Below are positions 5,986 to 19,081 of a stretch of DNA of 64,000 bases, piece after piece. A program made the position numbers and the translations under genes. Under the pieces are notes generated by a model that saw only the letters and a list, made by a program, of their open reading frames with translations, made no database searches and was not told the DNA's origin. The stretch's first letter is position 1. Each line of letters starts with the position of its first letter. The stretch is from assembly GCA_964491475.1 (NCBI GenBank), contig CAZBFO010000001.1, forward strand, positions 189,265 to 253,264. The letters are read 5' to 3'. Source of the DNA: an uncultured Gammaproteobacteria bacterium (GTDB lineage: Bacteria > Patescibacteriota > Patescibacteriia > SG8-24).

Positions 5986-7104
5986 ATGAATTACTACGTC
6001 AACCTATTCTCACCGGAAACCGCGGAAATTTTTTCGCGTTCCGGTAAGAACATAAGCGGCTTCCGTCTGACAAAAAAAACTTACGTTGAGAACAGAAAAA
6101 TCGGTCCGGGGGACCGATTCATTTGTTATGTAACACGCATTCAACGCTTTATTGGCGTTTTAGAAGTTGTCAGCGACCCGTTCGTTGATAGCTCTCCAAT
6201 TTTTGACAAAGAAAATGACCCATTTGTCCTCCGCTTTAAGGTAAAGCCGATGGTATGGCTTCCGCTCGAAAAAGCACTGCCAATTCATGACAAAGCCATT
6301 TGGAACAACCTGTCTTTTACCAAAGGACTTGGGGATGATAGCAATAATTGGACTTACATGGTTTTTTCAAGTCCAAATCATTGGCCGACTGGAGATTGTG
6401 TTTTTCTTGAAAAGAAACTGCTTGGCCAAGCAGAGGACCAAGTTGATTTTCCGTTTAGCGAAGATGACCAGAAGAAACTTAAACCCCAAAAAATTAAGCT
6501 TCCTGGGAAGAAAGCTGTAGCCGTAACGATTCCGGAAGATGAGGAGGTCCCAGATACAGCAGAACAAACTACACCAAAAGACAGTGAACGCGAGTCACTT
6601 ATTGTCCAATCTAAGTTAGCCGAGGTTGGCGAAAAGCTCGGCTTTAAAATTTGGCTACCACGAAACGACAGGGCAGCCATCATCGGAATGTGGAAACCGC
6701 GGCCAGATTCTCTACTTGAAGAGCTGCCGTTTTCTTTTGACGACGCAACCACTCGAACCATAAAAAATATCGATGTACTATGGGTTAAAGGTCGTACAAT
6801 TGCTAGGGCTTTTGAGGTGGAGGGCACCACATCAATATATTCTGGTATTTTGAGGATGGCCGACCTCCTATCACTCGTACCGAACATTGAAATCAAGATC
6901 CACATCGTTGCGCCAGACGGGAGGCGCGAGGAAGTGTTTAAACAAATATCTCGCCCAGTTTTTGCGATAATGGAAAAAGCACCTCTGGCAGAGCTCTGTA
7001 CCTTTATCTCCTATAGTTCGGTATACGAACTGGCCTCTGAGAAAAGATTAGATTTAATGAAAGAATCCGTAGTCGATGAATACGAGGAAGCCTCCGAAGA
7101 GTAG
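5986..7104 (+). CDS. Hypothetical protein with an N-terminal PUA/EVE-like domain and a C-terminal putative nuclease-like domain; candidate modification-dependent (Type IV) restriction enzyme
   Basis: GC drops abruptly at the lysS stop. The N-terminus (MNYYVNLFSPETAEIF...GPGDRFICYVT...FIGVLEVVSDPF) resembles EVE/PUA-like folds. The C-terminus (IDVLWVKG...AFEVEGTT) shows a possible D...ExE/K nuclease-like strand pair. A Type II R-M lies adjacent. Confidence 0.4.
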   Translation: MNYYVNLFSPETAEIFSRSGKNISGFRLTKKTYVENRKIGPGDRFICYVTRIQRFIGVLEVVSDPFVDSSPIFDKENDPFVLRFKVKPMVWLPLEKALPIHDKAIWNNLSFTKGLGDDSNNWTYMVFSSPNHWPTGDCVFLEKKLLGQAEDQVDFPFSEDDQKKLKPQKIKLPGKKAVAVTIPEDEEVPDTAEQTTPKDSERESLIVQSKLAEVGEKLGFKIWLPRNDRAAIIGMWKPRPDSLLEELPFSFDDATTRTIKNIDVLWVKGRTIARAFEVEGTTSIYSGILRMADLLSLVPNIEIKIHIVAPDGRREEVFKQISRPVFAIMEKAPLAELCTFISYSSVYELASEKRLDLMKESVVDEYEEASEE

Positions 7105-7573
7105 TTATATAACTCTTGTGCGCGACAAACAAAAAGATCACACGGTACTCGTCTTCGGCACATTCGACCTGCTTCACCCAGGCCATCTTGCGTTTCTACG
7201 TGCGGCAGCAAAGTACGGCTCAGTGACGGCCATCATAACGCCCGATGCGAAAGTCAAAATAGAGAAAGGGAAAGCACCACACTTTTCTGAACAAGAGAGG
7301 ATGCTTATGGCCGCGGCCATTAAGTATGTCGACCATGTCGTTCTGGGAGACAATGGTACAAAATGGAATGTAGTACGCAATCTGGCGCCTGACGTTATTT
7401 GCGTTGGCCATGACCAGAACGCCAATCACCCAAAGTTCCTCGCGCAGTTGGCGCTGCTAAAAAAGCTTCCGAAAATTGTTCGGCTGCCCAGCCTTAAATC
7501 TTCGCGCTACTCATCCTCAAAAGTTAAGCTTGAAATACACAAAGCCAAACAAAACGAAGCAGCCGCTGATTAG
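7076..7573 (+). CDS. Cytidylyltransferase-like nucleotidyltransferase (RibL FAD synthase / TagD glycerol-3-phosphate cytidylyltransferase family)
   Basis: VLVFGTFDLLHPGHLAFL is the (H/T)xGH nucleotidyltransferase motif. ...VVLGDNG... and PDVICVGHDQ align with archaeal RibL. The gene is low GC and overlaps the upstream ORF by 29 nt, so the true start may be an internal or alternative codon. Confidence 0.55.
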   Translation: MNTRKPPKSSYITLVRDKQKDHTVLVFGTFDLLHPGHLAFLRAAAKYGSVTAIITPDAKVKIEKGKAPHFSEQERMLMAAAIKYVDHVVLGDNGTKWNVVRNLAPDVICVGHDQNANHPKFLAQLALLKKLPKIVRLPSLKSSRYSSSKVKLEIHKAKQNEAAAD

Positions 7574-7659
7574 TGCTCAGCTCCGAATCCATCGCAATGT
7601 GCTGAAACAGCCCATAACTTAATCAAAAACCGTCGCTTTTATGATGGTTTTGTTGCCGT

Positions 7660-7694
7660 TTGACATTGACGCGACAGCTAATTTTTGCTAATAC
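7660..7694 (+). promoter_or_regulatory. Putative sigma70-type promoter for the PLD endonuclease gene (TTGACA/TTGACG - 17 nt - TAATAC)
   Basis: Sequence tttgacattgacgcgacagctaatttttgctaatact lies about 70 nt upstream of the Met at 7766. Confidence 0.4.
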
Positions 7695-7765
7695 TTTGTA
7701 AGGCGCGCCCGTTGCATGCCCGCCGTGACGGACATCGTAAATCACAACGACAACACCTTCTCACA

Positions 7766-8959
7766 ATGCCTACACAAAAATTCATTTTCCAGGGCATTAC
7801 TTCGGAAACACACAAATCTGGTGTTGCATGGCTTTTGGCAACTGCAGATATCCAAAAAATCTTAATGAGCGTGGCCTTCATCAGCGAAGAAGGTGTGGCA
7901 CAGATTGAAAATGATTTGCGAAGCCACGCGACAAGTACCGAGTTTTTTGCAGGGATCCGTAATGAGATAACTTCTCGTCAAGCACTCGCCCGTCTCATTG
8001 GTTTAGGCGCGACTTTGTTTACGGTTGATACCGGTTCAAAGGGCACGCTTTTCCATCCAAAGTTATACTTTGCCAAAGGGCAAAATTTTGCGCGTCTCAT
8101 AGTGGGTAGCGCAAACCTGACTGCTGGTGGCCTCAACGATAATATTGAAGCCAGTATCGCCCTCGAGCTCGATCTTGCTCAAGCCAATGATTCTGCGCTC
8201 AGCGACGATGTCGAGCGGCTGTTGGGTGACATGGTATCCAATCATCCCAGTAACGTAAAAAGAATTTCTGCCGCCACCGAGCTTGATGTGCTACTGAACA
8301 ATGGCTTATTAATTGACGAAAGCCTCGCCGCGCCCCCTCGCGCGGCGACTAAAGGATCTAGCCCGTCGAGCGATATTGTTCCCCGGATTCAGCTGAGCAC
8401 CACCCGGCTGAACCGCATCGTCGCACGCGCACGCACCACTCCTCGACAGGTTCCCCAAGCCGCCAGGGCGGGCCGCTCAACCCAAGCCTCGCCACAAGCA
8501 TCTCCAGCTCCTTTGCTGACCGGGATTGAATTGGTATGGCAAAGCAAACCCCTGGAGGAAAGTGACCTAAACATCCCGAGCGGCAACAACACCCACCCCA
8601 AGGGCTCCATGAGCCTCGATCAGGGTACCCTAGACCCCTCGGTTGATTTCCGTCATTACTTCCGAAATACCGTTTTTCCGCAATTAACTTGGACGGTGAG
8701 TACACGCACCCCTGACGGAGAAGAGGCCAGCGCAAAGTGTGAGCTAATTGTAAAAGGGATTTCCTACGGAGTACATGAATTGACTATCAGTCACCACACA
8801 TCAACGACATCGACCACCTACAGGCAGCGAGGCCCGACGACCCGTCTTCGATGGGGCGCCATGAAAAGTCTTGTAGCCACTCCCGTTTTGCTTGGCCGAA
8901 CACTTTCACTTTACAAGAATACCGCAAGTTCAGACCGCTTTGTTATTGATATTGACTGA
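7766..8959 (+). CDS. PLD-family (HKD nuclease) restriction endonuclease, BfiI/NgoAVII-like
   Basis: HPKLYFAKGQNFARLIVGSANLTAGG carries the HxK...GSxN PLD motif. It is followed by a C-terminal domain of DNA-binding size. Its 3' end overlaps a convergent N6A MTase. The start is taken at the internal Met (MPTQKF) because the longer ORF begins inside the promoter. Confidence 0.6.
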   Translation: MPTQKFIFQGITSETHKSGVAWLLATADIQKILMSVAFISEEGVAQIENDLRSHATSTEFFAGIRNEITSRQALARLIGLGATLFTVDTGSKGTLFHPKLYFAKGQNFARLIVGSANLTAGGLNDNIEASIALELDLAQANDSALSDDVERLLGDMVSNHPSNVKRISAATELDVLLNNGLLIDESLAAPPRAATKGSSPSSDIVPRIQLSTTRLNRIVARARTTPRQVPQAARAGRSTQASPQASPAPLLTGIELVWQSKPLEESDLNIPSGNNTHPKGSMSLDQGTLDPSVDFRHYFRNTVFPQLTWTVSTRTPDGEEASAKCELIVKGISYGVHELTISHHTSTTSTTYRQRGPTTRLRWGAMKSLVATPVLLGRTLSLYKNTASSDRFVIDID

Positions 8960-10596
8960 GCGTTATTTTGCTCGGACGCGGTTCTTTGCCGTCGATTTCG
9001 GAGATTTATCCAATTTTCAAAAATCAACTCTCTTTCGGTTGCCGTCAAGCCCAAATCACCCAAGAGCTTGCGATCCTGCTTGCCCAGCACCGCCTCAGTG
9101 GACAAAGTTCGGACGTCATAATCGAGCTCCTTGATGTTAATCTTCACTCCCTTGGGCATGGGAATCAGCAGTCGCTCGATCTCGGACGGAACAAGTTCCA
9201 ATACACCTCCGCCGTAATGCCTACCCTCCAGCTCCGCACTTAACGAGGTGAGCGAATTTACGAAATTACCGACCAAGACATTCCCCGAAACGCTGTTTGG
9301 CTTAATTCTATATGCAGTGTCAGTGGTAAAAGCGTTTAGCTTGTTCACAATAAGCCTCGGAGTATTGCTCGAACGCTTAAGCATGCCAATCTCGGTTGCA
9401 TGCACAGAAGGAACGGAATACCAAGGCTTTCGAACGCTACACTTATAGCGAGTGTTCAGCTTTTGCCGTTCGCCAAACGCAATGTATTTTCTGGCGGCGG
9501 CATCCTTTGCTGCTGACTTATCAGGGAACCAGATGAAGTTTGTCGGGTAGCCCTTTTGAGCGTTCTCTGCGTGCTGCCGAGCGTCGTAAATAACCCCGGG
9601 GCAGTGCCCACTCCTCCCGAACATCGGGTGTGACCATTTCTCCAACCCATACTCTTGGACGGTATCATCATCCACCAGAAAAAAATCGTTCGCGCCGGTC
9701 ACGATGCCAACGTCGACTGCTGCAATATCAATGAATTGTTTTACGTATTCTTGGTTTGCCAGATCTGACAGAATCGACCGCATCTTTGACGCAAGGAGTG
9801 CGTAGGTCCACTTTCCCTTATTGACATCCGTGTTCATCAACTTTGGCGCGTTAAACACCTCAGAGGGATTCAACTTTAGAAACTCTTTTCCTTGCACAGG
9901 ATAAATGCCGACGCCTTCATTAAAGCCCTTGGGGCCGCGGCGTTTTTCAGCCATCAAGAGGACCGCACCCTGGAGCGTATTACCAAACCAGATTTCCTGA
10001 GGGTCAACGATTACGACTCTCCGACACTCTCGTCCAAGAAATGCTCGCAGCGAGCCAGCGTGGGCTACGTGGATTATTTCCGAAGGCACCACCATCGCCA
10101 AACGACCTCCAGGCCGAAGCATCGCAAGGGATGCTGCAATAAATGGCACCCACGCGTTCGTATGCTTAGTGAAGTCGAGGTTTAGGTGCGAAAAAATTTG
10201 CGCGGCACGTGCTTGGAATTTCTCTGGTAGATACTGATAGCGGATGAATGGCGGATTACCCAAAATGGCATCGAAGGTGGTGTTACCGCGCATTTCTTCG
10301 GTTGCCCAGCCGAGATAGTCACCCTGAACGATTCTTGCCTTCGGAAGAAGACCGCGTACTCGCCTCGCAGACTTCGCGGCCTCGTCTTCGTCCAGCTCAA
10401 GGCCGGTGACGGTGCTATTTGCAAATCCACCAACCTTCGCGAGTGCTTCAAAAAAAATTCCGTCCCCGCAACTAGGCTCGAGGATGTTTGCCGGCTTAAT
10501 TTCCTTCACCCAGCGGCTCAAAAAAACTGCCAAATCTAAGGAAGTGTAGTAGCCGCCCCTAAGCTTTTGTGCACTCTCATTAGCCCTAAAGTTCAT
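8911..10596 (-). CDS. N6-adenine-specific DNA methyltransferase (gamma class, Eco57I/TaqI-like) with a C-terminal target-recognition region
   Basis: ILEPSCGDGIFF is the SAM-binding FxGxG motif and AILGNPPFIRY is catalytic motif IV (NPPF). The gene is low GC and sits opposite the PLD nuclease. Confidence 0.8.
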   Translation of the reverse strand: MNFRANESAQKLRGGYYTSLDLAVFLSRWVKEIKPANILEPSCGDGIFFEALAKVGGFANSTVTGLELDEDEAAKSARRVRGLLPKARIVQGDYLGWATEEMRGNTTFDAILGNPPFIRYQYLPEKFQARAAQIFSHLNLDFTKHTNAWVPFIAASLAMLRPGGRLAMVVPSEIIHVAHAGSLRAFLGRECRRVVIVDPQEIWFGNTLQGAVLLMAEKRRGPKGFNEGVGIYPVQGKEFLKLNPSEVFNAPKLMNTDVNKGKWTYALLASKMRSILSDLANQEYVKQFIDIAAVDVGIVTGANDFFLVDDDTVQEYGLEKWSHPMFGRSGHCPGVIYDARQHAENAQKGYPTNFIWFPDKSAAKDAAARKYIAFGERQKLNTRYKCSVRKPWYSVPSVHATEIGMLKRSSNTPRLIVNKLNAFTTDTAYRIKPNSVSGNVLVGNFVNSLTSLSAELEGRHYGGGVLELVPSEIERLLIPMPKGVKINIKELDYDVRTLSTEAVLGKQDRKLLGDLGLTATERELIFENWINLRNRRQRTASEQNNAQSISITKRSELAVFL

Positions 10597-10697: not shown

Positions 10698-12455
10698 TTA
10701 AGCTTTGGTTGGCTCACCGATATGAGGTTCATTCGGCGTCACGAAAGTCCCTTGAGCCTTGAGCAGCCCCGCATAAGCCCCACCCCGAGCCACGAGCTCC
10801 TCATGCCGCCCGCTCTCCGCAATCCGCCCGTCCTTCAAAACAAGAATCACATCCGCATCCTGCACCGTCCGTAACCGGTGGGCGATGATGAACGTCGTGC
10901 GGTCCTTCATCAAAACGTCGAGCGCGTTCCGCACGGCTTCCTCGGTCTTGCTGTCCAAGTGCGCCGTCGGTTCATCCAAAACGATGATCTTCGGCTTTCG
11001 CAGGAACGCCCGTGCCAACGCCACGCGCTGGCGCTCGCCTCCGGACAACTTCAGGCCGCGTTCGCCGACCATCGTGTTCAGGCCTTCGGGCAGCGCGGCC
11101 ACAAAGGTTTCAAGGCTGGCCAGGCGGACGGCCTCGCGGATCTCCTCTTCGCTGGCCTCGGGGCGGCCGTAGCGGATGTTGAAGCCGAGGGTTTCGTGGA
11201 AGAGGGTCAGGTCTTGGGGGACGTAGGACATCTGGCGGCGCAGGGACACCAAGTTGAGGTCGGCGGCGTTGCGGCCGTCGACCGTGATCTCGCCGGACTG
11301 GGGCAGGTAGTAGCGGCCGAGCAGGTCGACCATGGTGGTCTTGCCCTCGCCCGACTCGCCGACGATGGCCACGCGCTGGCCGGCCTTCACGGCGAACGAC
11401 ACGTCTTCCAGCGTCGGCTTGTCCTCGCTGTAGCGGAAGCGGACGTGACGGTATTCGACGTCGCCGCGCAGCTCGATGGCCTCGCCGCTCATGAAGTCCT
11501 CGGCAGGCTCGGATTCGATATCCTGAATGTCTTTGAGCGCGGCGGACATCCGCATGACCGAACGAAGCTGCCATTGGCAGTAGCGGATGTACCCGAAGAT
11601 GGCGAAGGTGTAGGCGGTGATGGTCGTGACGCGGCCAAAGGTGAACCGTCCGGCGCCGAAGTCCAGCACGGCCAGCAGCAATGCCGCGAACGATCCAAAG
11701 GAGATGATCAGGTTTTGGGTGTTGAGCACGCGCATGTCGATGCCGAAGTCCTCGGCGATGACCGCGCGGAACTCATCGCTGTACTGCTTGAGCGTGGTCG
11801 CGACGAACTGTTCGTTGGTGGTCGACTTCACCACCAGGGCGTTGCGCACGGAATCCCAGCCGAACGACGAAATCTTGCGATCGGCCTTGTTCCACTCCTT
11901 GCGGCTCTCCATCACCTTGGAAAGCGTCGAGCCGGTATACGACATGAAGGCGCAGATGGCCGCCAGCAGAGCCGCCGAAATGCGCCAGTCCAAATACGCC
12001 ACGTATCCCAAAATGCCCACGATGGCCAACAGTGCCGGCCACAAGTCGAACACGATGCCGCTGATGACGTTGTCCACGTCCCAGCGCAGACGGTTCACCG
12101 CCTCGGAAGTCTCGGCGCTTTTCCTGCCGTAATGAAAGGCCAGCGGCTTGTTGAGGATGACCAGCATCAACCGGCGCACCAAGCTTTCGGAGGCGTCCGT
12201 GGATACTTGCTGCCCGCGCTGCAACGTAAAGGAACGCAAGCGCTCCGAAATCACACGCAGTACGAACCAGCCGGCCAAGAAGCCGCCAGCCACCACGAAG
12301 CCCGAGCCGCCCCGAACCAAATCGAACCCACGCCCCATGGCGATGGGAGCGACCGTATCCAAACCGGCTGTCACCACGGAAAGCGCGGTGAAGGCGACGA
12401 CGGTGCGGGAATAAGGCTTGAGTTCGCGCTGGAGGAAGCGGGCGACAGGGTGCAT
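10698..12455 (-). CDS. ABC transporter, fused permease/ATP-binding half-transporter (MsbA-like exporter)
   Basis: Six-TM N-terminal domain. Walker A GESGEGKTT, ABC signature LSGGERQRVALARA and Walker B IIVLDEPTAHLD are all present. Confidence 0.85.
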   Translation of the reverse strand: MHPVARFLQRELKPYSRTVVAFTALSVVTAGLDTVAPIAMGRGFDLVRGGSGFVVAGGFLAGWFVLRVISERLRSFTLQRGQQVSTDASESLVRRLMLVILNKPLAFHYGRKSAETSEAVNRLRWDVDNVISGIVFDLWPALLAIVGILGYVAYLDWRISAALLAAICAFMSYTGSTLSKVMESRKEWNKADRKISSFGWDSVRNALVVKSTTNEQFVATTLKQYSDEFRAVIAEDFGIDMRVLNTQNLIISFGSFAALLLAVLDFGAGRFTFGRVTTITAYTFAIFGYIRYCQWQLRSVMRMSAALKDIQDIESEPAEDFMSGEAIELRGDVEYRHVRFRYSEDKPTLEDVSFAVKAGQRVAIVGESGEGKTTMVDLLGRYYLPQSGEITVDGRNAADLNLVSLRRQMSYVPQDLTLFHETLGFNIRYGRPEASEEEIREAVRLASLETFVAALPEGLNTMVGERGLKLSGGERQRVALARAFLRKPKIIVLDEPTAHLDSKTEEAVRNALDVLMKDRTTFIIAHRLRTVQDADVILVLKDGRIAESGRHEELVARGGAYAGLLKAQGTFVTPNEPHIGEPTKA

Positions 12456-12575
12456 ATCGCTTATAGTATAGCTTTTTCTGCCGAGGAACTGCTCAGTTTC
12501 TTCTTATTTGGCTCGGTTGTCAACATGCCTACAAGAAAACCGTCGAATCGACGACGGTTATGTTTCCCTGTAATC

Positions 12576-13187
12576 CTACGCCGTTACACGATCGAGAAAG
12601 CGGCATGCATTCGCCTGCAATGAACGCCCAACGATGCTCCGCGCGGCTTGTATGGCATCACCGCAGTTGTCGAAGACGAACGCGCGGTCCTTTTGACGGA
12701 ACAGGCGCTTGAACTCCGAATGATTTGCCCGTGCGTCTTGCTCGATTCCGTCCGGCTCCAGGGAACGAATCCTGCCGGTCATTCGGACGTCATGGTGCCG
12801 GCGACGTAGCACGGCATCAGTCGAAGCATTGAGCATAAAGTACGCCCTGCCGTACGGCCGAAACGCCTCGTCCCACATGCACTCGCGGCGCGTAATTCCA
12901 TTCTGCCTGATGCAGACAACCAAGTGCATCTCGCAGACGATCAACGGCGCCTGAGCGTGCAGGGCAAACGCCCTGAGCAGCGCCGATCGCAGCACCTCCC
13001 GCTTCGCAATAACGGATATCCGCTCAATCTCCTCACGGGAAGCGCCGTCGAAGGCGTGCCGCAAGACCTCCGAGCTCGATATCCGCACCGATCCTCTGAC
13101 CATGCTGACCGAGTGACCTGCTATGGTCGATTTTCCGACGCCGTTGATGCCGAACAGAAAGCAGACGTTTTTCATGATGGCCTCCAC
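12576..13187 (-). CDS. P-loop NTPase, small nucleotide/nucleoside kinase-like protein
   Basis: FLFGINGVGKSTIAG is a Walker A motif. Its size of about 200 aa fits NMP-kinase or shikimate-kinase-like folds. It lies downstream in the same orientation as the Ham1-like and ThyA-like genes. Confidence 0.5.
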   Translation of the reverse strand: MEAIMKNVCFLFGINGVGKSTIAGHSVSMVRGSVRISSSEVLRHAFDGASREEIERISVIAKREVLRSALLRAFALHAQAPLIVCEMHLVVCIRQNGITRRECMWDEAFRPYGRAYFMLNASTDAVLRRRHHDVRMTGRIRSLEPDGIEQDARANHSEFKRLFRQKDRAFVFDNCGDAIQAARSIVGRSLQANACRFLDRVTA

Positions 13188-13238
13188 GCCCTGAATGGGC
13201 GCCAGCCGCGTCGTCCGTTTGACGGCGCGGAAAGGCGA

Positions 13239-14201
13239 CTATTCAGGAGAAGCAAAGCGGCTTAGGAATCTGGCCAGCGCAGGCACCTCGGAAGTCCTGC
13301 CGCGCTCTTCGGGCGGCATTTCCGCATAGGTCAGTCCCGCGGGATTGGCAGCGGTCACCGGAATCAAGATCTTATCCATCGGGTACGAAGGGAACGTGCC
13401 TCGGGGTTCTTCGGAAAACCTGACCGGCACCTCGCTCACTTCCACGGACATCTGGAAGCCGTCAAAGAACGCGGCGGCGTTTCGTCTGCTCCCGTTTCGG
13501 TTTTCGACGCCCGCCAGGAGCCGCAACAGGCCCTCCGGCTTCAATTTGGTTGCGGCCTGTTTGGAGTTCGGACCGGGAAAGCCCTCATAGGCGTCCATGA
13601 AAATGCCGCCGTCGGTGCAGAGCACCGGTCTTCCCACGATTGCGTATGCACGTCGCGCCTTGTCGTCGGCAATTTTCTCGATGCTGTCATGTTTCAGTTC
13701 TGGAAGATCAAAGTCGCAAGCGTGGAGGTGCGGATGTTCGACCGCCGAACGCATTTCGCGCAACTTCATCGGATTGCTGGTGACAAAATAAACGGAGTCG
13801 GGGAACGGCCGATGGAATGCGACGACCGTGACACCAGTTTCTTCGTCGTCAGACTGCGCGGTCGGCACCCAGCCGAGTCCGCGCATCGAGCTGCGAATCC
13901 ACCTCGGATCAAAACCGCCGCAGGTACGAACGCGCTCAAAGTCGAAGACCGCATACGTGCCGACCCGAGACAGCCTCGTGAGCTCGGCCATATGCAACTG
14001 CGCTTCGACCTTGTCCGCCGTCAGACGGAGCACGTTCCTCGACGTGAGCACGTCGAACGCGCAAGGCGTCACTGGCATGCCTAACATGATCACCTCCAAA
14101 CACCTTGGCGACTCCAATGCGTCAAGCACTCCCGTGAGCACCGTTTCAAAACGCACGATGTTTCGCCTGCTTACTTCCTCGTTCTGCATGTCGACTCTCA
14201 T
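13239..14201 (-). CDS. Fusion protein: unknown N-terminal domain joined to a Ham1/ITPase-like non-canonical NTP pyrophosphatase domain
   Basis: The C-terminal half carries VYFVTSNPMKLREM (Ham1 S/TxNxxKxxE motif), DFDLPE and DGGIFMDAYEGFPGP. The start is chosen at the Met (MRVDMQ) that overlaps the upstream ThyA-like stop in an ATGA arrangement. Confidence 0.55.
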   Translation of the reverse strand: MRVDMQNEEVSRRNIVRFETVLTGVLDALESPRCLEVIMLGMPVTPCAFDVLTSRNVLRLTADKVEAQLHMAELTRLSRVGTYAVFDFERVRTCGGFDPRWIRSSMRGLGWVPTAQSDDEETGVTVVAFHRPFPDSVYFVTSNPMKLREMRSAVEHPHLHACDFDLPELKHDSIEKIADDKARRAYAIVGRPVLCTDGGIFMDAYEGFPGPNSKQAATKLKPEGLLRLLAGVENRNGSRRNAAAFFDGFQMSVEVSEVPVRFSEEPRGTFPSYPMDKILIPVTAANPAGLTYAEMPPEERGRTSEVPALARFLSRFASPE

Positions 14202-14971
14202 ACCATTCCCGCCATTAACGGCATTAACCTTGGCATCTTTTGCGCGGCGCACTCATTTAGGTACGAACTGACCGTCTCGAGAGCGGCATCATAGGTGTTC
14301 TGATAGATGTGGCCGTCCGTAATCATTCCGTCGATGAAGCCCATGCGTACCGGCGCACTGAGCGTTGACGACAACCGACGCCCCACCTCCTGCGCCAGCA
14401 GTGAGAAAATCACCAAATCGCTGACGTTCTTCTGGAAGATGTCCTGCGAACGCATGTTGTAAATGGTGTTGAGCATGTAGCCGTTGTCGTTCTTGCGGAG
14501 ACGGAACTGCAACGAAACGATACAGGGGAGATAGTCGTTATAGGGCGAATCCAGCACCTTGCCGTAATCCTCGTACGTCGGGAACACCATGACCGCCTTT
14601 TTGGATTCGGGAATTTCCGTCAGCCGTTTCACCACGAAATCGATCATTCGCCCCTCATGCAGCCTCGCATGATAGCTTTTCGCGCCCACGCGAAAGTTCG
14701 GCGTGATGTCGAAGTCTTCCATGACGGGGGACTCGAACACCAGACGGCGCATCTTCTCGATGTTGGCGGCGTTGCCGTAGCGCTCGACCAAGAAATCCTT
14801 TTCGCCGTGCGACCGCACCTTGAGCCGAAGCATCGGCAATGCGAACCTGCCCCGGTTCTCGTCGGGATCGTAAGCCCCGTTCTTAATGACGCACTCGACT
14901 GCCGCCAACCAAGCCTCACCGATAGTGTCTCCGGCAACCGAGTAGCCGAAGCATTCGTGGAAATTAATCAT
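14198..14971 (-). CDS. Thymidylate-synthase-fold pyrimidine C5-methylase/hydroxymethylase homolog
   Basis: [10 protein letters not shown] aligns with the ThyA PCH catalytic Cys loop. [20 protein letters not shown] aligns with [28 protein letters not shown] aligns with GDTHLY. Aligned by eye, Asp occupies the position of the specificity Asn of E. coli ThyA. Confidence 0.6.
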   Translation of the reverse strand: [257 protein letters not shown]

Positions 14972-15152: not shown

Positions 15153-15569
15153 ATGGGTGATTTTCTAAAACGTTTCTTGGAATGGTCACAGCTTAAAATG
15201 GCACTGCATCAATTGCACAAAACGGTGCGATGCAAGGAGCGCGAAATATGGTGGGTGCACCTAGGGGTAAACGTAGGCGACGAAGAGGACGGCAAGAATG
15301 CGTCGTTCGAAAGACCAGCTATCATCATTAGGAGATTTTATGGCGGCAAGATACTTTGGGTTATTCCTCTCACAACATCAAAGAGAGATGGCGATTATTA
15401 CTTCAGCACCCGCTACACTAACTCAAACGGAAAAGTAATTGATCAATTCGCCATGATCCCGCACTTACGTGCAATCAGCCAAAAAAGGCTGGTACGCAAA
15501 TTGCGGATGCTGTCGAAAATCGAGTTCTCATCGTTAGCAGAACGAATAAAACAGTTCTTGGACACATAA
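15153..15569 (+). CDS. MazF/PemK-like endoribonuclease toxin homolog (orphan; no adjacent antitoxin ORF)
   Basis: REIWWVHLGVNVG...ERPAIIIRRF...ILWVIPLTTSKRDGDYYF parallels MazF GDLIWVDFDP...RPAVVLSPF...CLCVPCTTQSKGYPFEV. Confidence 0.5.
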   Translation: MGDFLKRFLEWSQLKMALHQLHKTVRCKEREIWWVHLGVNVGDEEDGKNASFERPAIIIRRFYGGKILWVIPLTTSKRDGDYYFSTRYTNSNGKVIDQFAMIPHLRAISQKRLVRKLRMLSKIEFSSLAERIKQFLDT

Positions 15570-17165: not shown

Positions 17166-18908
17166 CTACTTCTCGGCGGCCAAAGCGTCGAAAAGGCCGT
17201 CGAAGAACTTGGAGACGGATTTCCTGCCGCGCGCCTCCTTTGCGACCAAAAACTGAAAATGCGTTCGCTTGAGGTTGGTGTTGGCAATGTGGCGGCTGTG
17301 AAAGGTCTCGAGCATCTTCTTGCCGTCATAGAACTCGCGCCGGCGGCCATCCTTCTTTATCGAGGCCACTGCAACCTCGGCATTCTTTTGGAGTTTCGCG
17401 ACCTCCTCTGCCGAGAATTTCATCTGAAGCTCTGCAATGAAATCTCCGACCTGCTTCGCGAGCTCGGTGAGCGGCCGCTTCGGGCGGAAACCGTGAAAAC
17501 CGAGAGCCTTGTGGACCCGTCGCTCTATCTCATCCGCCTCCATCTCGTCGGAAATTTTGTCGAGCGCCGCGACAACGTCCTCCTTCGATTTCAGGTCTGT
17601 CTGCTCGACTACGACCTCAATTGCCCTCCAGATGGCGTCAGGATCAATGAGGAAGTTCTCGACCACGGACACAGGTAGGACAAACACGTCCTCGGGCACC
17701 TCTGGCGGAAAACCGACATCCTGATCGACCAAGGCGAAGACCTTGAGGCCACTGCTAAATCCGTCGAGCGCGCTCGAAAGACGCGATCTCAAGCTCATGC
17801 ATTCACTTTTTCCTCCACCAGGGATAACGGTGGCTCCGTCAAACCTTTGGCTAAGTGCACGGAAGAGTTTCCGCGCGCCGACGGCATTCTTCGCCTGCTC
17901 ATCACCCACGCCCTCTGCGATGATGACTGGCTGCATCGCGGTCAGATTGGAAGTACTGCCGAACAGCTCGCGCAAGACGGACAGACGCTCGTCATCGGCG
18001 GCAATCGGAATCAGCTGGTTTTCTCCGTCGGCCACCAGCTCGACTGGCCGCATCAGAAATAGCTCCTCAAAGGATGCATTCTCTACAATGGACGGGGAGT
18101 GGGTCGCAACAATCACCTGTGTATCCTCTTCGGCGGCAAGCACGCGGAGGTAGTCGAGCACTTTCATCTGCAAGTTCGGGTGCAGGTGTAACTCCGGTTC
18201 GTCTATGAGAACACACAAGTCGGTCTTGGCCTTGGGGGCGGAGCGACCATGAAGACCGTCGAGCGCCTCACGAACACGATGTTCGATCAGGGGATAGAAC
18301 ATCTGGATAATCGACTTCTCGCCAGAACTCAGGTCATCGAGGTCCACTTCAGTCGGCTTGCCGTGGACACGCCACACGCACCGAATGTTATCGCGATTCG
18401 ATGTGTCGATCTTCACGAACTCAAGGTGCGGCAATAGACTCTTCGTTAGAGCGCGAAACGGCTCCCAGACGTCGTCGATGGTGCCCTTGAGAATCTCTTG
18501 ATCTCGGTCGAATCGCGCCGTGATAGCTTCCTTCCTGCCAACGTCGATCTGGCAGAGCCCGTGCTTCAGGTAGTTGTATGCGTCATCAACGTTCCACGCG
18601 TCGCGGCTTCCACCCGCAAGAAGATTGATACCCTCGTAGCCCGATACCGATGTCTGTGTGAGGATTTCCTCCAGCTTGATGTCCTGACTTGCTAGGTGGC
18701 GTTGTTGCACTGTCTGCTTGCGCATGGCGCGAGCGGGGCCAACGTAGAGTACGCCGCTGGTGCGGCCGCCGGAGTTTCGGAGTTCGTTCAGGAGTGTGGA
18801 TTTGCCGCAGCCGTTCGGACCGGCGATGATCATCAGACTCGGGACAGCGACGCACTCGGCGAGCCGAACGGCCCGCTTATCGGTGATTTTGAATTCGGGA
18901 ATGCGCAT
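17166..18908 (-). CDS. OLD-family nuclease (ABC-type ATPase with a C-terminal Toprim domain), standalone class 1
   Basis: Walker A GPNGCGKST, signature-like LSSGEKS, Walker B LCVLIDEPELHLHP and H-loop ATHSP are present. The C-terminus carries VIIAEGVGDE...LVDQD Toprim acidic motifs. The start is taken at the internal Met (MRIPEF). No helicase or other partner gene is adjacent. Confidence 0.7.
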   Translation of the reverse strand: MRIPEFKITDKRAVRLAECVAVPSLMIIAGPNGCGKSTLLNELRNSGGRTSGVLYVGPARAMRKQTVQQRHLASQDIKLEEILTQTSVSGYEGINLLAGGSRDAWNVDDAYNYLKHGLCQIDVGRKEAITARFDRDQEILKGTIDDVWEPFRALTKSLLPHLEFVKIDTSNRDNIRCVWRVHGKPTEVDLDDLSSGEKSIIQMFYPLIEHRVREALDGLHGRSAPKAKTDLCVLIDEPELHLHPNLQMKVLDYLRVLAAEEDTQVIVATHSPSIVENASFEELFLMRPVELVADGENQLIPIAADDERLSVLRELFGSTSNLTAMQPVIIAEGVGDEQAKNAVGARKLFRALSQRFDGATVIPGGGKSECMSLRSRLSSALDGFSSGLKVFALVDQDVGFPPEVPEDVFVLPVSVVENFLIDPDAIWRAIEVVVEQTDLKSKEDVVAALDKISDEMEADEIERRVHKALGFHGFRPKRPLTELAKQVGDFIAELQMKFSAEEVAKLQKNAEVAVASIKKDGRRREFYDGKKMLETFHSRHIANTNLKRTHFQFLVAKEARGRKSVSKFFDGLFDALAAEK

Positions 18909-19081
18909 AATAAAAAGTGATATTGACTGGCCGATCTTAGCACTCGCAACGGTGAAGTGCCAAGAGCGTTTAGACCCAAGGTTCTTGAGCCGTGACCGGA
19001 GCATCAAGTACCGATCCAAACGGTTTTCCCATATCCACACCCCGTTGTTTTTCCCGCGCCCAAGTGTCAAAATAAGCTCAC

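Follow-up and report, generated by a model that had tools for sequence, protein, structure and literature searches.

A three-gene operon on a Patescibacteria (CPR) chromosome, located within the 64,000-nucleotide stretch of DNA analyzed here (the window), may produce a deoxycytidine nucleotide modified at C5, the change being made on the mononucleotide, in a route leading from dCTP through dCMP and 5-(hydroxy)methyl-dCMP to the diphosphate. This is the reading that we favor, tentatively and with a confidence somewhat short of even. The operon encodes a protein with a thymidylate synthase (ThyA)-like fold, a Ham1-domain protein, and a small kinase, and it represents a pared-down form of a module found more widely in CPR and DPANN. 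Conserved and under selection in ultra-small symbiotic bacteria and archaea, this module has apparently not been described before.

The three open reading frames were borne out at the positions given in an earlier note on this DNA, all on the minus strand. The predicted ThyA-fold pyrimidine-nucleotide C5-modifying enzyme (positions 14198 to 14971; 257 aa), which belongs to the Asp-type (cytosine-type) clade, is followed by the Ham1 gene (14201 to 13239; 320 aa) and by the kinase gene (12576 to 13175; 199 aa counted from the ATG of the public record, with a GTG at 13187 as an alternative start). As also noted earlier, the stop codon of the ThyA-like gene and the start codon of the Ham1 gene overlap, with the Ham1 ATG lying inside ATGA (reverse complement ...ATGGTATGAGAGTC). 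The order of the three genes and the 4-nt overlap of the first two recur in at least seven other genomes at unrelated chromosomal positions, indicating that the linkage of the trio is above chance. Purifying selection acts on all three genes: in comparison with an 89%-identical relative, the ThyA-like gene has a dN/dS of 0.08, the Ham1 domain 0.06, and the kinase 0.24, against 0.09 for SerRS, these ratios being approximate because dS is saturated (>1). A consensus scan placed a terminator-like hairpin at positions 12538 to 12559 of the minus strand, 17 nt past the kinase stop codon, with an 8-bp stem containing 5 GC pairs and then a T-rich tail. Since the region shows no significant excess of terminator-like sites (9 found versus 5.8 ± 2.5 expected), a function for this hairpin is argued by its position only. 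Overall, the overlap, the low dN/dS, and the hairpin after the kinase support the integrity of the operon. The MsbA/HlyB-type ABC exporter encoded next (10698 to 12455, minus strand; 585 aa; Pfam ABC_membrane and ABC_tran) is a neighbor outside the operon core.

The ThyA-like protein scored 28 bits against the Pfam family Thymidylat_synt (PF00303; cut-off, 24.3). The best NCBIfam model was a methanogen-type thymidylate synthase, which aligned end to end, and the scores fell below the thresholds of the thymidylate synthase equivalogs (TIGR03283, 34.5 versus 174.55; NF002495, 29.2 versus 327). The solved folds closest to its AF2 model (pLDDT 90) were a phage dCMP 5-hydroxylase and then MilA, before the true thymidylate synthases; MilA was also the top PDB sequence match, with an identity of about 19%. 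Diagnostic residues were mapped by an hhalign profile-profile alignment of 74 family members with E. coli ThyA, which paired LAPCHAFFQF of E. coli with the Cys block of the family and GDTHLY with TDGHIY. The resulting equivalences (window protein to E. coli) were Cys150 to Cys146, Ser175 to Ser167, Asp177 to Asp169, and Asp185 to Asn177. In the HMMER alignment, the specificity Asp of MilA also falls on Asp185, and the Asp that the earlier note had placed by hand at the ThyA specificity Asn was therefore correctly aligned. Cys150, Arg174-Ser175, and His221/Tyr223 are invariant in the 74 sequences and aligned with the E. coli residues, so that the Cys of the (A/L)PC motif, the Arg166-Ser167 pair, and the His207/Tyr209 pair that characterize the superfamily are all present. 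A residue equivalent to the general base Glu58 was not located in the protein.

Asp at position 177 denotes cytosine, and Ser at position 167 is the main determinant of deoxyribose (PMC5175136, PMC13326640), the presence of Ala or Ser there having been rated the main ribose/deoxyribose determinant (PMC5175136). Asp185 and Ser175 are common to the window protein and T4-type dCMP hydroxymethylase, and the specificity Asp was found in every clade-D (Asp-type) member examined. Sequence and structure comparison place the protein in the C5-modifying enzyme class, with cytosine as the base recognized. It resembles canonical ThyA (EC 2.1.1.45) in its fold, catalytic Cys-Pro motif, Arg166-Ser167, Asp169, and His207/Tyr209, but differs from it in the change of Asn177 to Asp, in having Lys-Lys for Arg126/Arg127, in the lack of a conserved C-terminal lid, and in its sporadic phyletic distribution.

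The published marker of hydroxymethylases is an Asp or Glu at the position of E. coli Leu143, thought to let in water that hydrates the methylene intermediate (PMC13326640). This marker is absent from the window protein, in which the residue alignment places Tyr147, invariant in the family, at that position; a methyl product is therefore possible. The pyrimidine hypermodification module suggested in the earlier note is partly supported: the ThyA-like fold, the catalytic Cys, the specificity Asp, and the trio operon hold, and the marker of a hydroxymethyl product is lacking. Lys124 and Lys125 stand at the positions of the phosphate-binding Arg126 and Arg127. A Lys at the Arg126' position is the state of the ribo-preferring MilA and BcmA (PMC5175136), and CMP might accordingly be a substrate as well. 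Of the two candidate products, hydroxymethyl and methyl, the former is favored.

In the second protein, Ham1p_like (PF01725) covers residues 137 to 304 (69.8 bits), and the closest solved relative, matched over the full domain, is Mj0226 (1b78; E = 2.6e-18). From these matches, a Ham1/ITPase-fold NTP pyrophosphatase domain was assigned to residues 136 to 320 (positions 13239 to 13796, minus strand), although the Ham1 equivalog thresholds were missed (NF011396, 84 versus 203; TIGR00042, 67 versus 145). The C-terminal S-H-R motif contacts hypoxanthine O6 (His177/Arg178 in human ITPA). In the PDB alignments, in which the comparison covers the Ser and His positions of the motif and not the Arg, the His of both aligned archaeal ITPases is replaced by Glu in the window domain (S-E-V). 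The fused Ham1 group has (S/T)-E-(V/L) at this site, almost every system-linked Ham1 protein shows a changed motif, and we count this departure from the archaeal ITPase S-H motif as support for the pathway. The domain is predicted to carry out the (d)CTP-to-(d)CMP step, for which the substrate is purely what we infer.

The Ham1 domain had previously been described as part of a fusion; the domain is present, but its partner is a decayed methyltransferase. The N-terminal 135 aa (positions 13797 to 14201, minus strand) align with the intact Ham1-methyltransferase-Ham1 or methyltransferase-Ham1 proteins of the relatives at loci L006, L007, L055, L060, L062, and L063 and are what is left of the C-terminal half of a class I SAM methyltransferase. 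Motif I (GxGxG) and all sequence upstream of it have been lost, and Pfam methyltransferase domains were found in the L055 protein (L055_10), not in the second protein of the window. Constraint on the remnant is relaxed, with a dN/dS of 0.29 versus 0.06 for the Ham1 domain.

The third gene encodes a predicted nucleoside-monophosphate kinase of the archaeal adenylate kinase (AdkA) type. Pfam returned generic P-loop kinase models only, all under their cut-offs, and the family profile matched the archaeal adenylate kinases 6pjw, 3h86, and 1ki9 weakly over residues 3 to 183 (E = 4.5e-4 to 2e-3), a span that takes in the Arg-rich LID segment. In the family alignment, the Walker A sequence is GINGVGKS, and R125, R126, D129, R135, and R137 are invariant; Walker A and the end-to-end adenylate kinase match agree with the small P-loop kinase first proposed for this gene. 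At 21 of 57 loci, the kinase gene accompanies the ThyA-like gene.

In the proposed pathway, the Ham1-fold domain would cleave dCTP to dCMP and pyrophosphate, which would supply the substrate and lower the canonical triphosphate. Cys150 of the ThyA-fold enzyme would attack C6 of dCMP while Asp185 reads the cytosine N3/N4 face, and the one-carbon unit of methylene-tetrahydrofolate would be transferred to C5, giving 5-hydroxymethyl-dCMP (favored) or 5-methyl-dCMP. The AdkA-type kinase would then turn the modified dNMP into the diphosphate, and the last phosphate of the triphosphate would be added by a general NDP kinase. The same three-step logic is found in the T-even 5hmC pathway (gp56 dCTPase, gp42 dCMP hydroxymethylase, and gp1 dNMP kinase). 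This analogy, already drawn in the earlier note, holds and gains weight from the relatives, in which the pyrophosphatase may be a Ham1, a Nudix, or a CYTH protein, one standing in for another. T4 also has a GT-B glycosyltransferase, as do some relatives of the window module.

Of 185,579 species genomes, only 56 carry the ThyA-like family, nearly all of these being CPR or DPANN; among 1.84 billion representatives, only 14 clusters of 50% identity match it at E ≤ 1e-30. Such a restricted presence argues against a housekeeping thymidylate synthase, and the public annotations that label family proteins as thymidylate synthases are probably wrong. Neither a canonical thyA nor a ThyX motif was found within the 64-kb window. 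A phage-borne gene or a recent import from phages is ruled out by the lack of any family member on 2.9 million viral contigs; this is a cellular CPR/DPANN family.

An NTP pyrophosphatase gene is nearly always found beside the ThyA-like gene, a kinase gene usually, and a gene for a QueC-like ATPase often. In clade D, a Ham1, Nudix, or CYTH NTP hydrolase, in some cases fused to the ThyA-like protein, lies within 4 kb at 28 of 31 loci (22 of the 23 with full flanks). The wider module of the relatives also has a Ham1-fused SAM methyltransferase or a PP-loop ATPase of the QueC-like kind, in some cases with a glycosyltransferase as well. These extra genes imply that the base is decorated further, a step lost in the lineage of the window, and since most relatives carry such enzymes (QueC-like or methyltransferase), the ancestral product was probably more complex than hm-dC. 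Five loci are flanked by GT1 glycosyltransferase and dNK genes, three of them also by HD; the glycosyltransferase is consistent with a hydroxyl acceptor.

The sister clade is Asn-type (uracil-type), and its members are flanked in nine loci by a protein, c11, that is absent from the window. The N-terminal domain of c11 matches DNPH1/Rcl, a 5-hydroxymethyl-dUMP N-hydrolase, along its whole extent (E = 1.5e-14), and a ribbon-helix-helix DNA-binding domain is fused to it. The residue aligned with the Rcl motif Ser is kept, and Gln stands where the GYE motif of Rcl has Glu. This Gln, together with the fusion, points to a ligand sensor and not a hydrolase, and c11 is probably a catalytically dead, hmdUMP-hydrolase-like regulator that senses a modified dNMP. 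Its presence at Asn-type loci was counted as support for a product that is both deoxy and hydroxymethylated.

By analogy with T-even phages, the most economical fate of the product would be incorporation into the cell's own DNA. The broadest form of this proposal, which we regard as possible but doubtful, is that CPR/DPANN carriers replace one of the canonical pyrimidines of their own chromosome, wholly or in part, before replication, via the dNTP pool. The Asp-type clade, including the window, would use 5-hydroxymethyl- or 5-methyl-dC and the Asn-type clade 5-hydroxymethyl-dU, while lineages with QueC-like, methyltransferase, or glycosyltransferase partners would decorate the base further. 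To our knowledge, base replacement before replication through the nucleotide pool has been known so far from viruses only and is regarded as a viral invention, and the cellular DNA modifications that we know of are added after replication. The module holds, in CPR/DPANN cells, the parts needed for that viral strategy. If the product enters DNA, the genomes of carriers would be chemically distinct, with consequences for resistance to the nucleases of hosts and phages, for sequencing, and for methylation assays (bisulfite or enzymatic), and with a bearing on the origin of the phage pathways. If it is a free nucleotide or base, organisms credited with hardly any secondary metabolism would be the source of a new nucleoside metabolite. 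CPR metabolic reconstructions that credit dTMP synthesis to these genes need to be re-examined. Since cultured oral Saccharibacteria lineages carry the module, it is directly testable.

Two neighbors count against the favored pathway. An EVE-domain protein with a restriction-endonuclease-like C terminus, encoded 7 kb from the trio (23.1 bits, marginal to the cut-off of 23), would be incompatible with genome-wide self-modification if it recognizes 5mC or 5hmC. Orthologous ABC exporter genes adjoin the trio in the three related genomes where it is linked to SerRS, lying downstream of it in the window and in L004 and upstream in L063 (56% identity), which fits an exported product. A small molecule instead of a DNA precursor is a rival reading that we judge unlikely: 5-hydroxymethyl-(d)CMP or a derived base or nucleoside would be secreted or used in signaling, as in the mildiomycin (MilA/MilB) and bacimethrin (BcmA-D) systems, with Ham1 and the kinase providing precursor supply or self-protection and the ABC protein providing export. 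In addition to the exporter, it is favored by the rank of MilA among the sequence and fold matches, by the Lys at the Arg126' position, which the window protein shares with MilA/BcmA as it does the specificity Asp, and by the ancestral fused methyltransferase, which recalls BcmC. A few distant Asn-type members in non-CPR bacteria, and no other members, adjoin a SLOG/LOG-like protein (family LDcluster4), and L035 and L044 also have an adenylating enzyme and a carrier-protein/thioesterase-like protein nearby, annotated by motif reading only; these neighbors point the same way. However, Ser175 is deoxy-type where MilA has Ala176, position 143 is not acidic in the window protein, and its partners, an NTP pyrophosphatase and an NMP kinase, follow a nucleotide-pool logic unlike that of known cytosine-nucleoside antibiotic clusters. 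No MilB/BcmB-type N-glycosidase was found in the window or in clade D, the hairpin lies between the kinase and ABC genes, and the ABC gene is missing from the L060 and L062 contexts. The MilA/BcmA-like natural product offered as an alternative in the earlier note is thus weakened by Ser175, the lack of a base-releasing glycosidase in the window, and the hairpin, and retains the Lys124 state in its favor.

A conditional anti-phage or conflict system, which on infection would deplete dCTP and/or swamp the pool with 5-substituted dCTP, poisoning or marking invader DNA (for example, for a modification-dependent nuclease) with no permanent modification of the host genome, seems quite unlikely to us. 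The family is sporadic and accessory, the window trio lies among defense genes (a fused AriA-AriB [PARIS]-like gene [E = 4e-56], MazF, a Type II methyltransferase with a PLD nuclease, and the EVE/REase-like gene), and HAM1-like and QueC-like proteins are known from defense systems, KomB being among the PDB matches of the Ham1 domain and QatC among the NCBIfam matches of the QueC-like partner. Against this, PADLOC v2 gave no match at E ≤ 0.001 for the three operon proteins, the operon has no sensor or effector domain, and in relatives it lies among housekeeping genes (MraZ/RsmH, SerRS/Alr/Ddl, and a MetRS-type synthetase) without defense neighbors. Thymidylate supply, by an unusual true thymidylate synthase or by a dCMP methylase followed by deamination of its product to dTMP, with Ham1 as dUTPase/dCTPase and the kinase as dTMP kinase, is improbable. 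It would agree with the public annotations, the best NCBIfam model, the bulky Tyr147 at the "methyl-product" position, and a dCMP deaminase gene 1 kb downstream in L060; de novo nucleotide synthesis is also missing in CPR bacteria (PMC10633639). Nevertheless, the specificity residue is Asp and not Asn in all of clade D, the equivalog scores are 5- to 11-fold under the cut-offs, a family in 56 species genomes cannot be a general CPR solution, and QueC-like, methyltransferase, and glycosyltransferase partners fit nowhere in dTMP synthesis. Moreover, hydride transfer by ThyA requires the C-terminal lid, and the C terminus of the window protein is neither conserved nor confidently modeled by AF2. 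Very improbable is a flavin-dependent dCMP 5-hydroxylase (5-hydroxy-dCMP synthase) like RB69 gp48, DLP3 gp80, or HY126 AfhB. Asp at position 169 marks the folate-dependent class and not the flavin hydroxylase class, and all experimentally verified 5hodCMP synthases have Asn there (PMC13326640); the change is absent from the window protein, which has Asp like almost all family members, Asn being confined to a Nudix-fused subgroup. The hydroxylase would also require O2, whereas most carriers are CPR and DPANN organisms presumably living in groundwater or sediment.

The trio had been placed in a low-GC accessory region with restriction-modification and Type IV-like genes, which the base composition and gene order refute. 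Its GC content is 55 to 60%, compared with 44 to 52% for the restriction/Type IV islands and 61 to 65% for housekeeping genes, and the nearest genome has the same order of SerRS, trio, and ABC genes with other restriction genes around. The neighboring restriction and defense genes are separate insertions.

The ThyA-like gene (14971..14198, minus strand; a 257-aa ORF), the Ham1 gene (14201..13239, minus strand; 320-aa product), and the AdkA-type kinase gene (13175..12576, minus strand; a 199-aa ORF) follow one another as an operon. The in-operon ATG of the Ham1 gene at 14201 overlaps the TGA of the ThyA-like gene as ATGA (reverse complement, ...ATGGTATGAGAGTC), and the kinase gene begins 63 nt after the Ham1 gene. 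In Pfam searches, the ThyA-like protein matched Thymidylat_synt barely over the threshold (28 bits versus 24.3), residues 137 to 304 of the Ham1 gene product matched Ham1p_like with 69.8 bits, and the kinase-gene product matched generic P-loop kinase models only; matches to the NCBIfam thymidylate-synthase and XTP/dITP-diphosphatase equivalogs fell far short of the cutoffs. These ORFs and matches confirm what the earlier note had described, three co-directional genes with an ATGA overlap encoding a ThyA-fold protein, a Ham1 protein, and a P-loop kinase. A terminator-like hairpin (12559..12538, minus strand) with an 8-bp stem and a T-rich tail lies 17 nt past the kinase stop codon, and the next gene encodes an MsbA-type ABC exporter (12455..10698, minus strand; 585 aa). 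Given this hairpin and two loci of relatives that carry no ABC gene (L060 and L062), the exporter was downgraded as an operon component.

Residue equivalences in the ThyA-like protein were obtained from a profile-profile alignment (hhalign) to E. coli ThyA covering residues 105 to 235; the equivalents of Glu58 and of the folate-contacting Trp80 and Trp83 could not be placed. Cys150, Ser175, Asp177, His221, and Tyr223 correspond to E. coli Cys146, Ser167, Asp169, His207, and Tyr209, while Tyr147 takes the place of Leu143, and Asp185 that of Asn177, as a hand alignment had proposed. Lys124 and Lys125 were paired with Arg126 and Arg127 from the alignment to the CMP hydroxymethylase MilA and the motif order; a profile alignment to T4 dCMP hydroxymethylase (probability of 9.6%) was usable at the Cys and RS(N/Q)D motifs only. 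As aligned, the enzyme has an intact nucleophile and nucleotide-binding set together with a cytosine-type specificity residue. Asp at position 177 switches the base specificity from uracil to cytosine, and at position 143 an acidic residue goes with a hydroxymethyl product and a hydrophobic one with a methyl product (PMC13326640). The choice between deoxyribose and ribose depends mainly on Ser or Ala at position 167, with Arg or Lys at position 126' as an auxiliary determinant (PMC5175136). By these residues, the ThyA-like protein reads as a cytosine-specific, folate-dependent, deoxyribose-leaning enzyme, and its product, methyl or hydroxymethyl, appears ambiguous. The last 20 C-terminal residues lack conservation and are of low confidence in the model. 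Since true thymidylate synthases require a C-terminal lid for hydride transfer, this state leans toward hydroxymethylation.

The ThyA-like protein had 460 relatives in a search of 5.8 billion proteins; the few named ones belong to Parcubacteria, Saccharimonadales, and one DPANN archaeon, and in every case the label is "thymidylate synthase" or missing. A scan with two invariant family peptides across 185,579 species, one genome each, found 56 loci, about 30 of them in Saccharibacteria and the others in further CPR phyla, Nanoarchaeota, and a few MAGs labeled Gammaproteobacteria, Clostridia, Parvibaculaceae, Holophagaceae, or Desulfobacteraceae. Exhaustive profile searching of 1.84 billion cluster representatives gave only 14 clusters at an E value of ≤1e-30, beyond which the next relatives were short ThyA-like proteins of ~210 aa. 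When 2.9 million viral contigs were scanned with the family's invariant peptides, none of the 34 pattern matches was confirmed, and a phage origin of the family was therefore ruled out. Against PHROGs, the ThyA-like protein gave a generic thymidylate-synthase match only, and the Ham1 protein and the kinase matched nothing. An exact copy of the window's ThyA-like protein was absent from the contig index, and an 89% relative was used in its place. By its SerRS homologues, the window organism belongs to the Patescibacteria.

In relatives whose ThyA-like proteins are 70 to 80% identical to that of the window, the ThyA-like gene is followed by a Ham1-MTase-Ham1 or MTase-Ham1 gene (509 to 577 aa) and then by the kinase gene. 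The 4-nt overlap is kept, and the chromosomal contexts are three unrelated ones (MraZ/RsmH, TatD/LRR, and SerRS/ABC). The 135-aa N-terminal extension of the window Ham1 protein aligns with the C-terminal half of the relatives' methyltransferase, lacks motif I and everything upstream of it, and has a dN/dS of 0.29 versus 0.06 for the Ham1 domain. Therefore, of the Ham1 "fusion" in the earlier note the Ham1 domain stands, but its N-terminal partner is what remains of a methyltransferase after decay, and the module in the window is a reduced one. This loss raised the possibility of a degenerate or pseudogenised operon, which was rejected on a dN/dS of 0.06 to 0.24 and the retention of every family-invariant residue.

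Two archaeal ITPases, Mj0226 and PH1917, aligned with the entire Ham1 domain; their C-terminal S-H motif is S-E-V in the window. Nearly all system-linked Ham1 proteins have a changed motif here, (S/N)HR being retained in only two. The equivalent residues of human ITPA, His177 and Arg178, contact hypoxanthine O6, and S-E-V fits an altered base specificity of the Ham1 domain. The kinase belongs to a small, divergent family (11 word-indexed relatives), whose profile aligns with archaeal adenylate kinases from end to end and includes an Arg-rich LID-like segment. By their alignments, the two proteins are an NTP pyrophosphatase of the Ham1 fold whose base pocket is altered and an NMP-kinase-type P-loop protein. 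L060 has, directly downstream of the operon and on the other strand (11282-12669, minus strand), one gene for a stand-alone Ham1 protein that likewise lacks the SHR motif and one for a dCMP deaminase.

In an alignment of full-length members, the family splits cleanly into clade D (at least 50% identity to the window; Asp185 with Asn225), which takes in the window's group and Saccharibacteria, and its sister clade N (38 to 49% identity; Asn185, mostly with Glu225). Window position 225 is E. coli Asn211 by motif register, and residues 185 and 225 co-vary across all 57 loci (the 56 loci and the window). The kinds of partner genes are common to both clades; the module therefore exists in cytosine-type and uracil-type versions, as phage hydroxymethylases likewise do.

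One neighbor, the ~200-aa protein c11, is confined to clade N, where its gene flanks the ThyA-like gene at L030, L032, L036, L037, L038, L047, L049, and L051, with a fragment in L042. At the N terminus, c11 has a domain matching DNPH1/Rcl (E value of 1.5e-14), a 2'-deoxynucleoside-5'-phosphate N-hydrolase currently named 5-hydroxymethyl-dUMP N-hydrolase, and its C terminus matches the NikR/CopG ribbon-helix-helix. The residue aligned with the motif Ser of Rcl, which binds phosphate, is kept, and Gln is found in place of the Glu of the GYE motif, the catalytic nucleophile Glu93 of Rcl. Thus read, c11 is probably a catalytically dead hm-dUMP-hydrolase fold joined to a DNA-binding domain, a sensor-regulator for modified dNMP, and would give indirect support to a family acting on deoxynucleotides with hydroxymethyl products.

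To define the partners, ORFs were called around the 57 loci and classified with iterated HMMs seeded with Pfam-annotated examples. A QueC-like PP-loop ATPase was found at 37/57 loci, a Nudix hydrolase at 31, an AdkA-like kinase at 21, Ham1 at 20, a 160-aa protein termed c3 at 15, the DNPH1-like/RHH protein c11 at 9, CYTH at 6, a GT1 glycosyltransferase with a dNK-family kinase at 5 (3 of them with an HD phosphohydrolase), and a SLOG/LOG-like protein at 4. Nudix-ThyA-like fusions exist among the relatives. An NTP hydrolase lies within ≤4 kb of the ThyA-like gene at 28 of the 31 clade D loci (22 of 23 with complete flanks). Ham1, Nudix, and CYTH thus place three unrelated folds in the NTP-hydrolase slot, and this non-orthologous displacement is the strongest argument for an NTP-to-NMP step in the pathway. 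The operon is a selected three-gene unit, and the linkage of its three functions is family wide.

Several of these partners have features of their own. The divergent QueC-like protein, the most frequent one, carries an SGGxDS motif and a C-terminal CxxCxxC and sometimes occurs in two copies; its gene lies directly downstream of the ThyA-like gene in L008-L059 (L008 731..1480, L042 757..1623, match relative) and is not in the window. The conserved c3 is the fourth cluster gene in Saccharibacteria L008-L027, L046, and L059 and was without a match in Pfam, NCBIfam, and the PDB. Judged by eye only, its FGYIKSEG... and NYMHAAD motifs look like two NDP kinase motifs, those of strand 1 and the catalytic His, and c3 may replace the AdkA-like kinase at Saccharibacteria loci. 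In both clades, the dNK-family kinase and GT1 glycosyltransferase stand beside the ThyA-like and QueC-like genes (L020, L030, L034, L036, and L057), with the HD phosphohydrolase added in L030, L034, and L036, a set that is reminiscent of phage hydroxymethyl-base glycosylation.

In the proposed pathway, Ham1 would convert dCTP to dCMP, the ThyA-like enzyme would use CH2-THF to turn dCMP into 5-(hydroxy)methyl-dCMP, and the kinase would phosphorylate the latter, which would then be completed to the triphosphate and used by DNA polymerase. The rivals are a thymidylate route, a flavin hydroxylase, an exported or free metabolite, and conditional defense. As regards a thymidylate route, within the 64-kb window there is no canonical thyA, ThyX motif, or other partner gene of the family, and at the specificity position the protein has Asp185. 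The nearest solved fold is the flavin-dependent dCMP 5-hydroxylase of phage HY126 (9iqc; score of 20.2), ahead of MilA (18.0) and of true thymidylate synthases and T4 dCMP hydroxymethylase (15.4 each), and the Foldseek ranking of these structures was unchanged. MilA was the sole significant PDB sequence match, and Asn at position 169, the mark of flavin-dependent 5-hydroxy-dCMP synthases (PMC13326640), is Asp177 in the window. We consider it likely that the ThyA-like protein is a cytosine-nucleotide C5-modifying enzyme, not a housekeeping thymidylate synthase.

The two other rivals concern the fate of the product. A free or exported metabolite has a possible parallel in two MAG loci, L035 (Parvibaculaceae) and L044 (Holophagaceae), whose genes together resemble a small MilA/MilB-type cluster for a nucleobase natural product; the window residues are deoxyribose leaning. 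Conditional defense would suit an operon next to defense genes, and no trio protein matched a PADLOC model. The full pathway, with its Ham1, ThyA-like, and kinase steps, is put forward tentatively, at somewhat under an even chance, and replacement of dC by the product in the chromosome seems unlikely. If true, pre-replicative base replacement in a cell, a minority chance, would be categorically new. The enzyme class and pathway logic are already known from phages and nucleoside-antibiotic clusters. What appear to be new are the cellular CPR/DPANN setting, the families used (Ham1/Nudix/CYTH and an AdkA-type kinase), the recurrent QueC-like and methyltransferase partners, and the DNPH1-like regulator. 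The family and gene set were undescribed in CPR, DPANN, and Saccharibacteria in the literature searched, a scope that excludes the 2013 Iyer/Aravind DNA-base-modification survey.

In L035 and L044, the Asn-type ThyA-like gene lies ≤3.5 kb from a SLOG/LDcluster4 protein (E value of 4e-38, scored on the L053 homologue), together with, by eye only, a ~500-aa adenylate-forming-enzyme-like and a ~400-aa carrier-protein-plus-hydrolase-like protein. In a Nudix-fused subgroup (the proteins P0043 and P0069 and locus L055), Asp169 is replaced by Asn (MRSWNI), the published flavin-dependent 5-hydroxy-dCMP synthase signature; its members would be candidate cellular 5hoC-nucleotide makers.

The nearest genome, GCA_023246195.1, encodes proteins 58 to 89% identical to those of the window in the order FtsH-Ddl-Alr-SerRS, ThyA-like-Ham1-kinase-ABC, and then a Type I R-M system. 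The window has this backbone plus insertions (MazF-like, PARIS-like, and a low-GC block). The GC content of the operon (55 to 60%) is slightly under that of housekeeping genes (61 to 65%). On this value and the synteny, membership of the trio in the low-GC R-M island was rejected. The trio is a resident accessory operon adjoining a variable defense hotspot, outside the R-M island.

The MazF/PemK-like toxin gene (15153-15569, plus strand; GC of 45%) is an insertion that separates SerRS from the operon; L005 has a homologous ORF of 139 aa upstream of its ThyA-like gene. Between SerRS and Alr, a 634-aa ABC-type ATPase (17166-19070, minus strand) matches the fused AriA-AriB (PARIS) PADLOC model (E value of 4e-56); this gene is missing at the matching position in the syntenic relative L001. 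Beyond the ABC gene lies the low-GC block (5986-10596; four genes, GC of 44 to 52%). It holds a PLD-family nuclease, an M.Eco57I-like N6-adenine methyltransferase in convergent orientation (PADLOC MTase_II, E value of 1e-182), and a gene for a protein that joins a marginal EVE domain to a Type II REase-like C terminus, overlapped by a cytidylyltransferase-like gene. If the EVE protein is a reader of modified cytosine, it would bear on whether the genome can self-modify.
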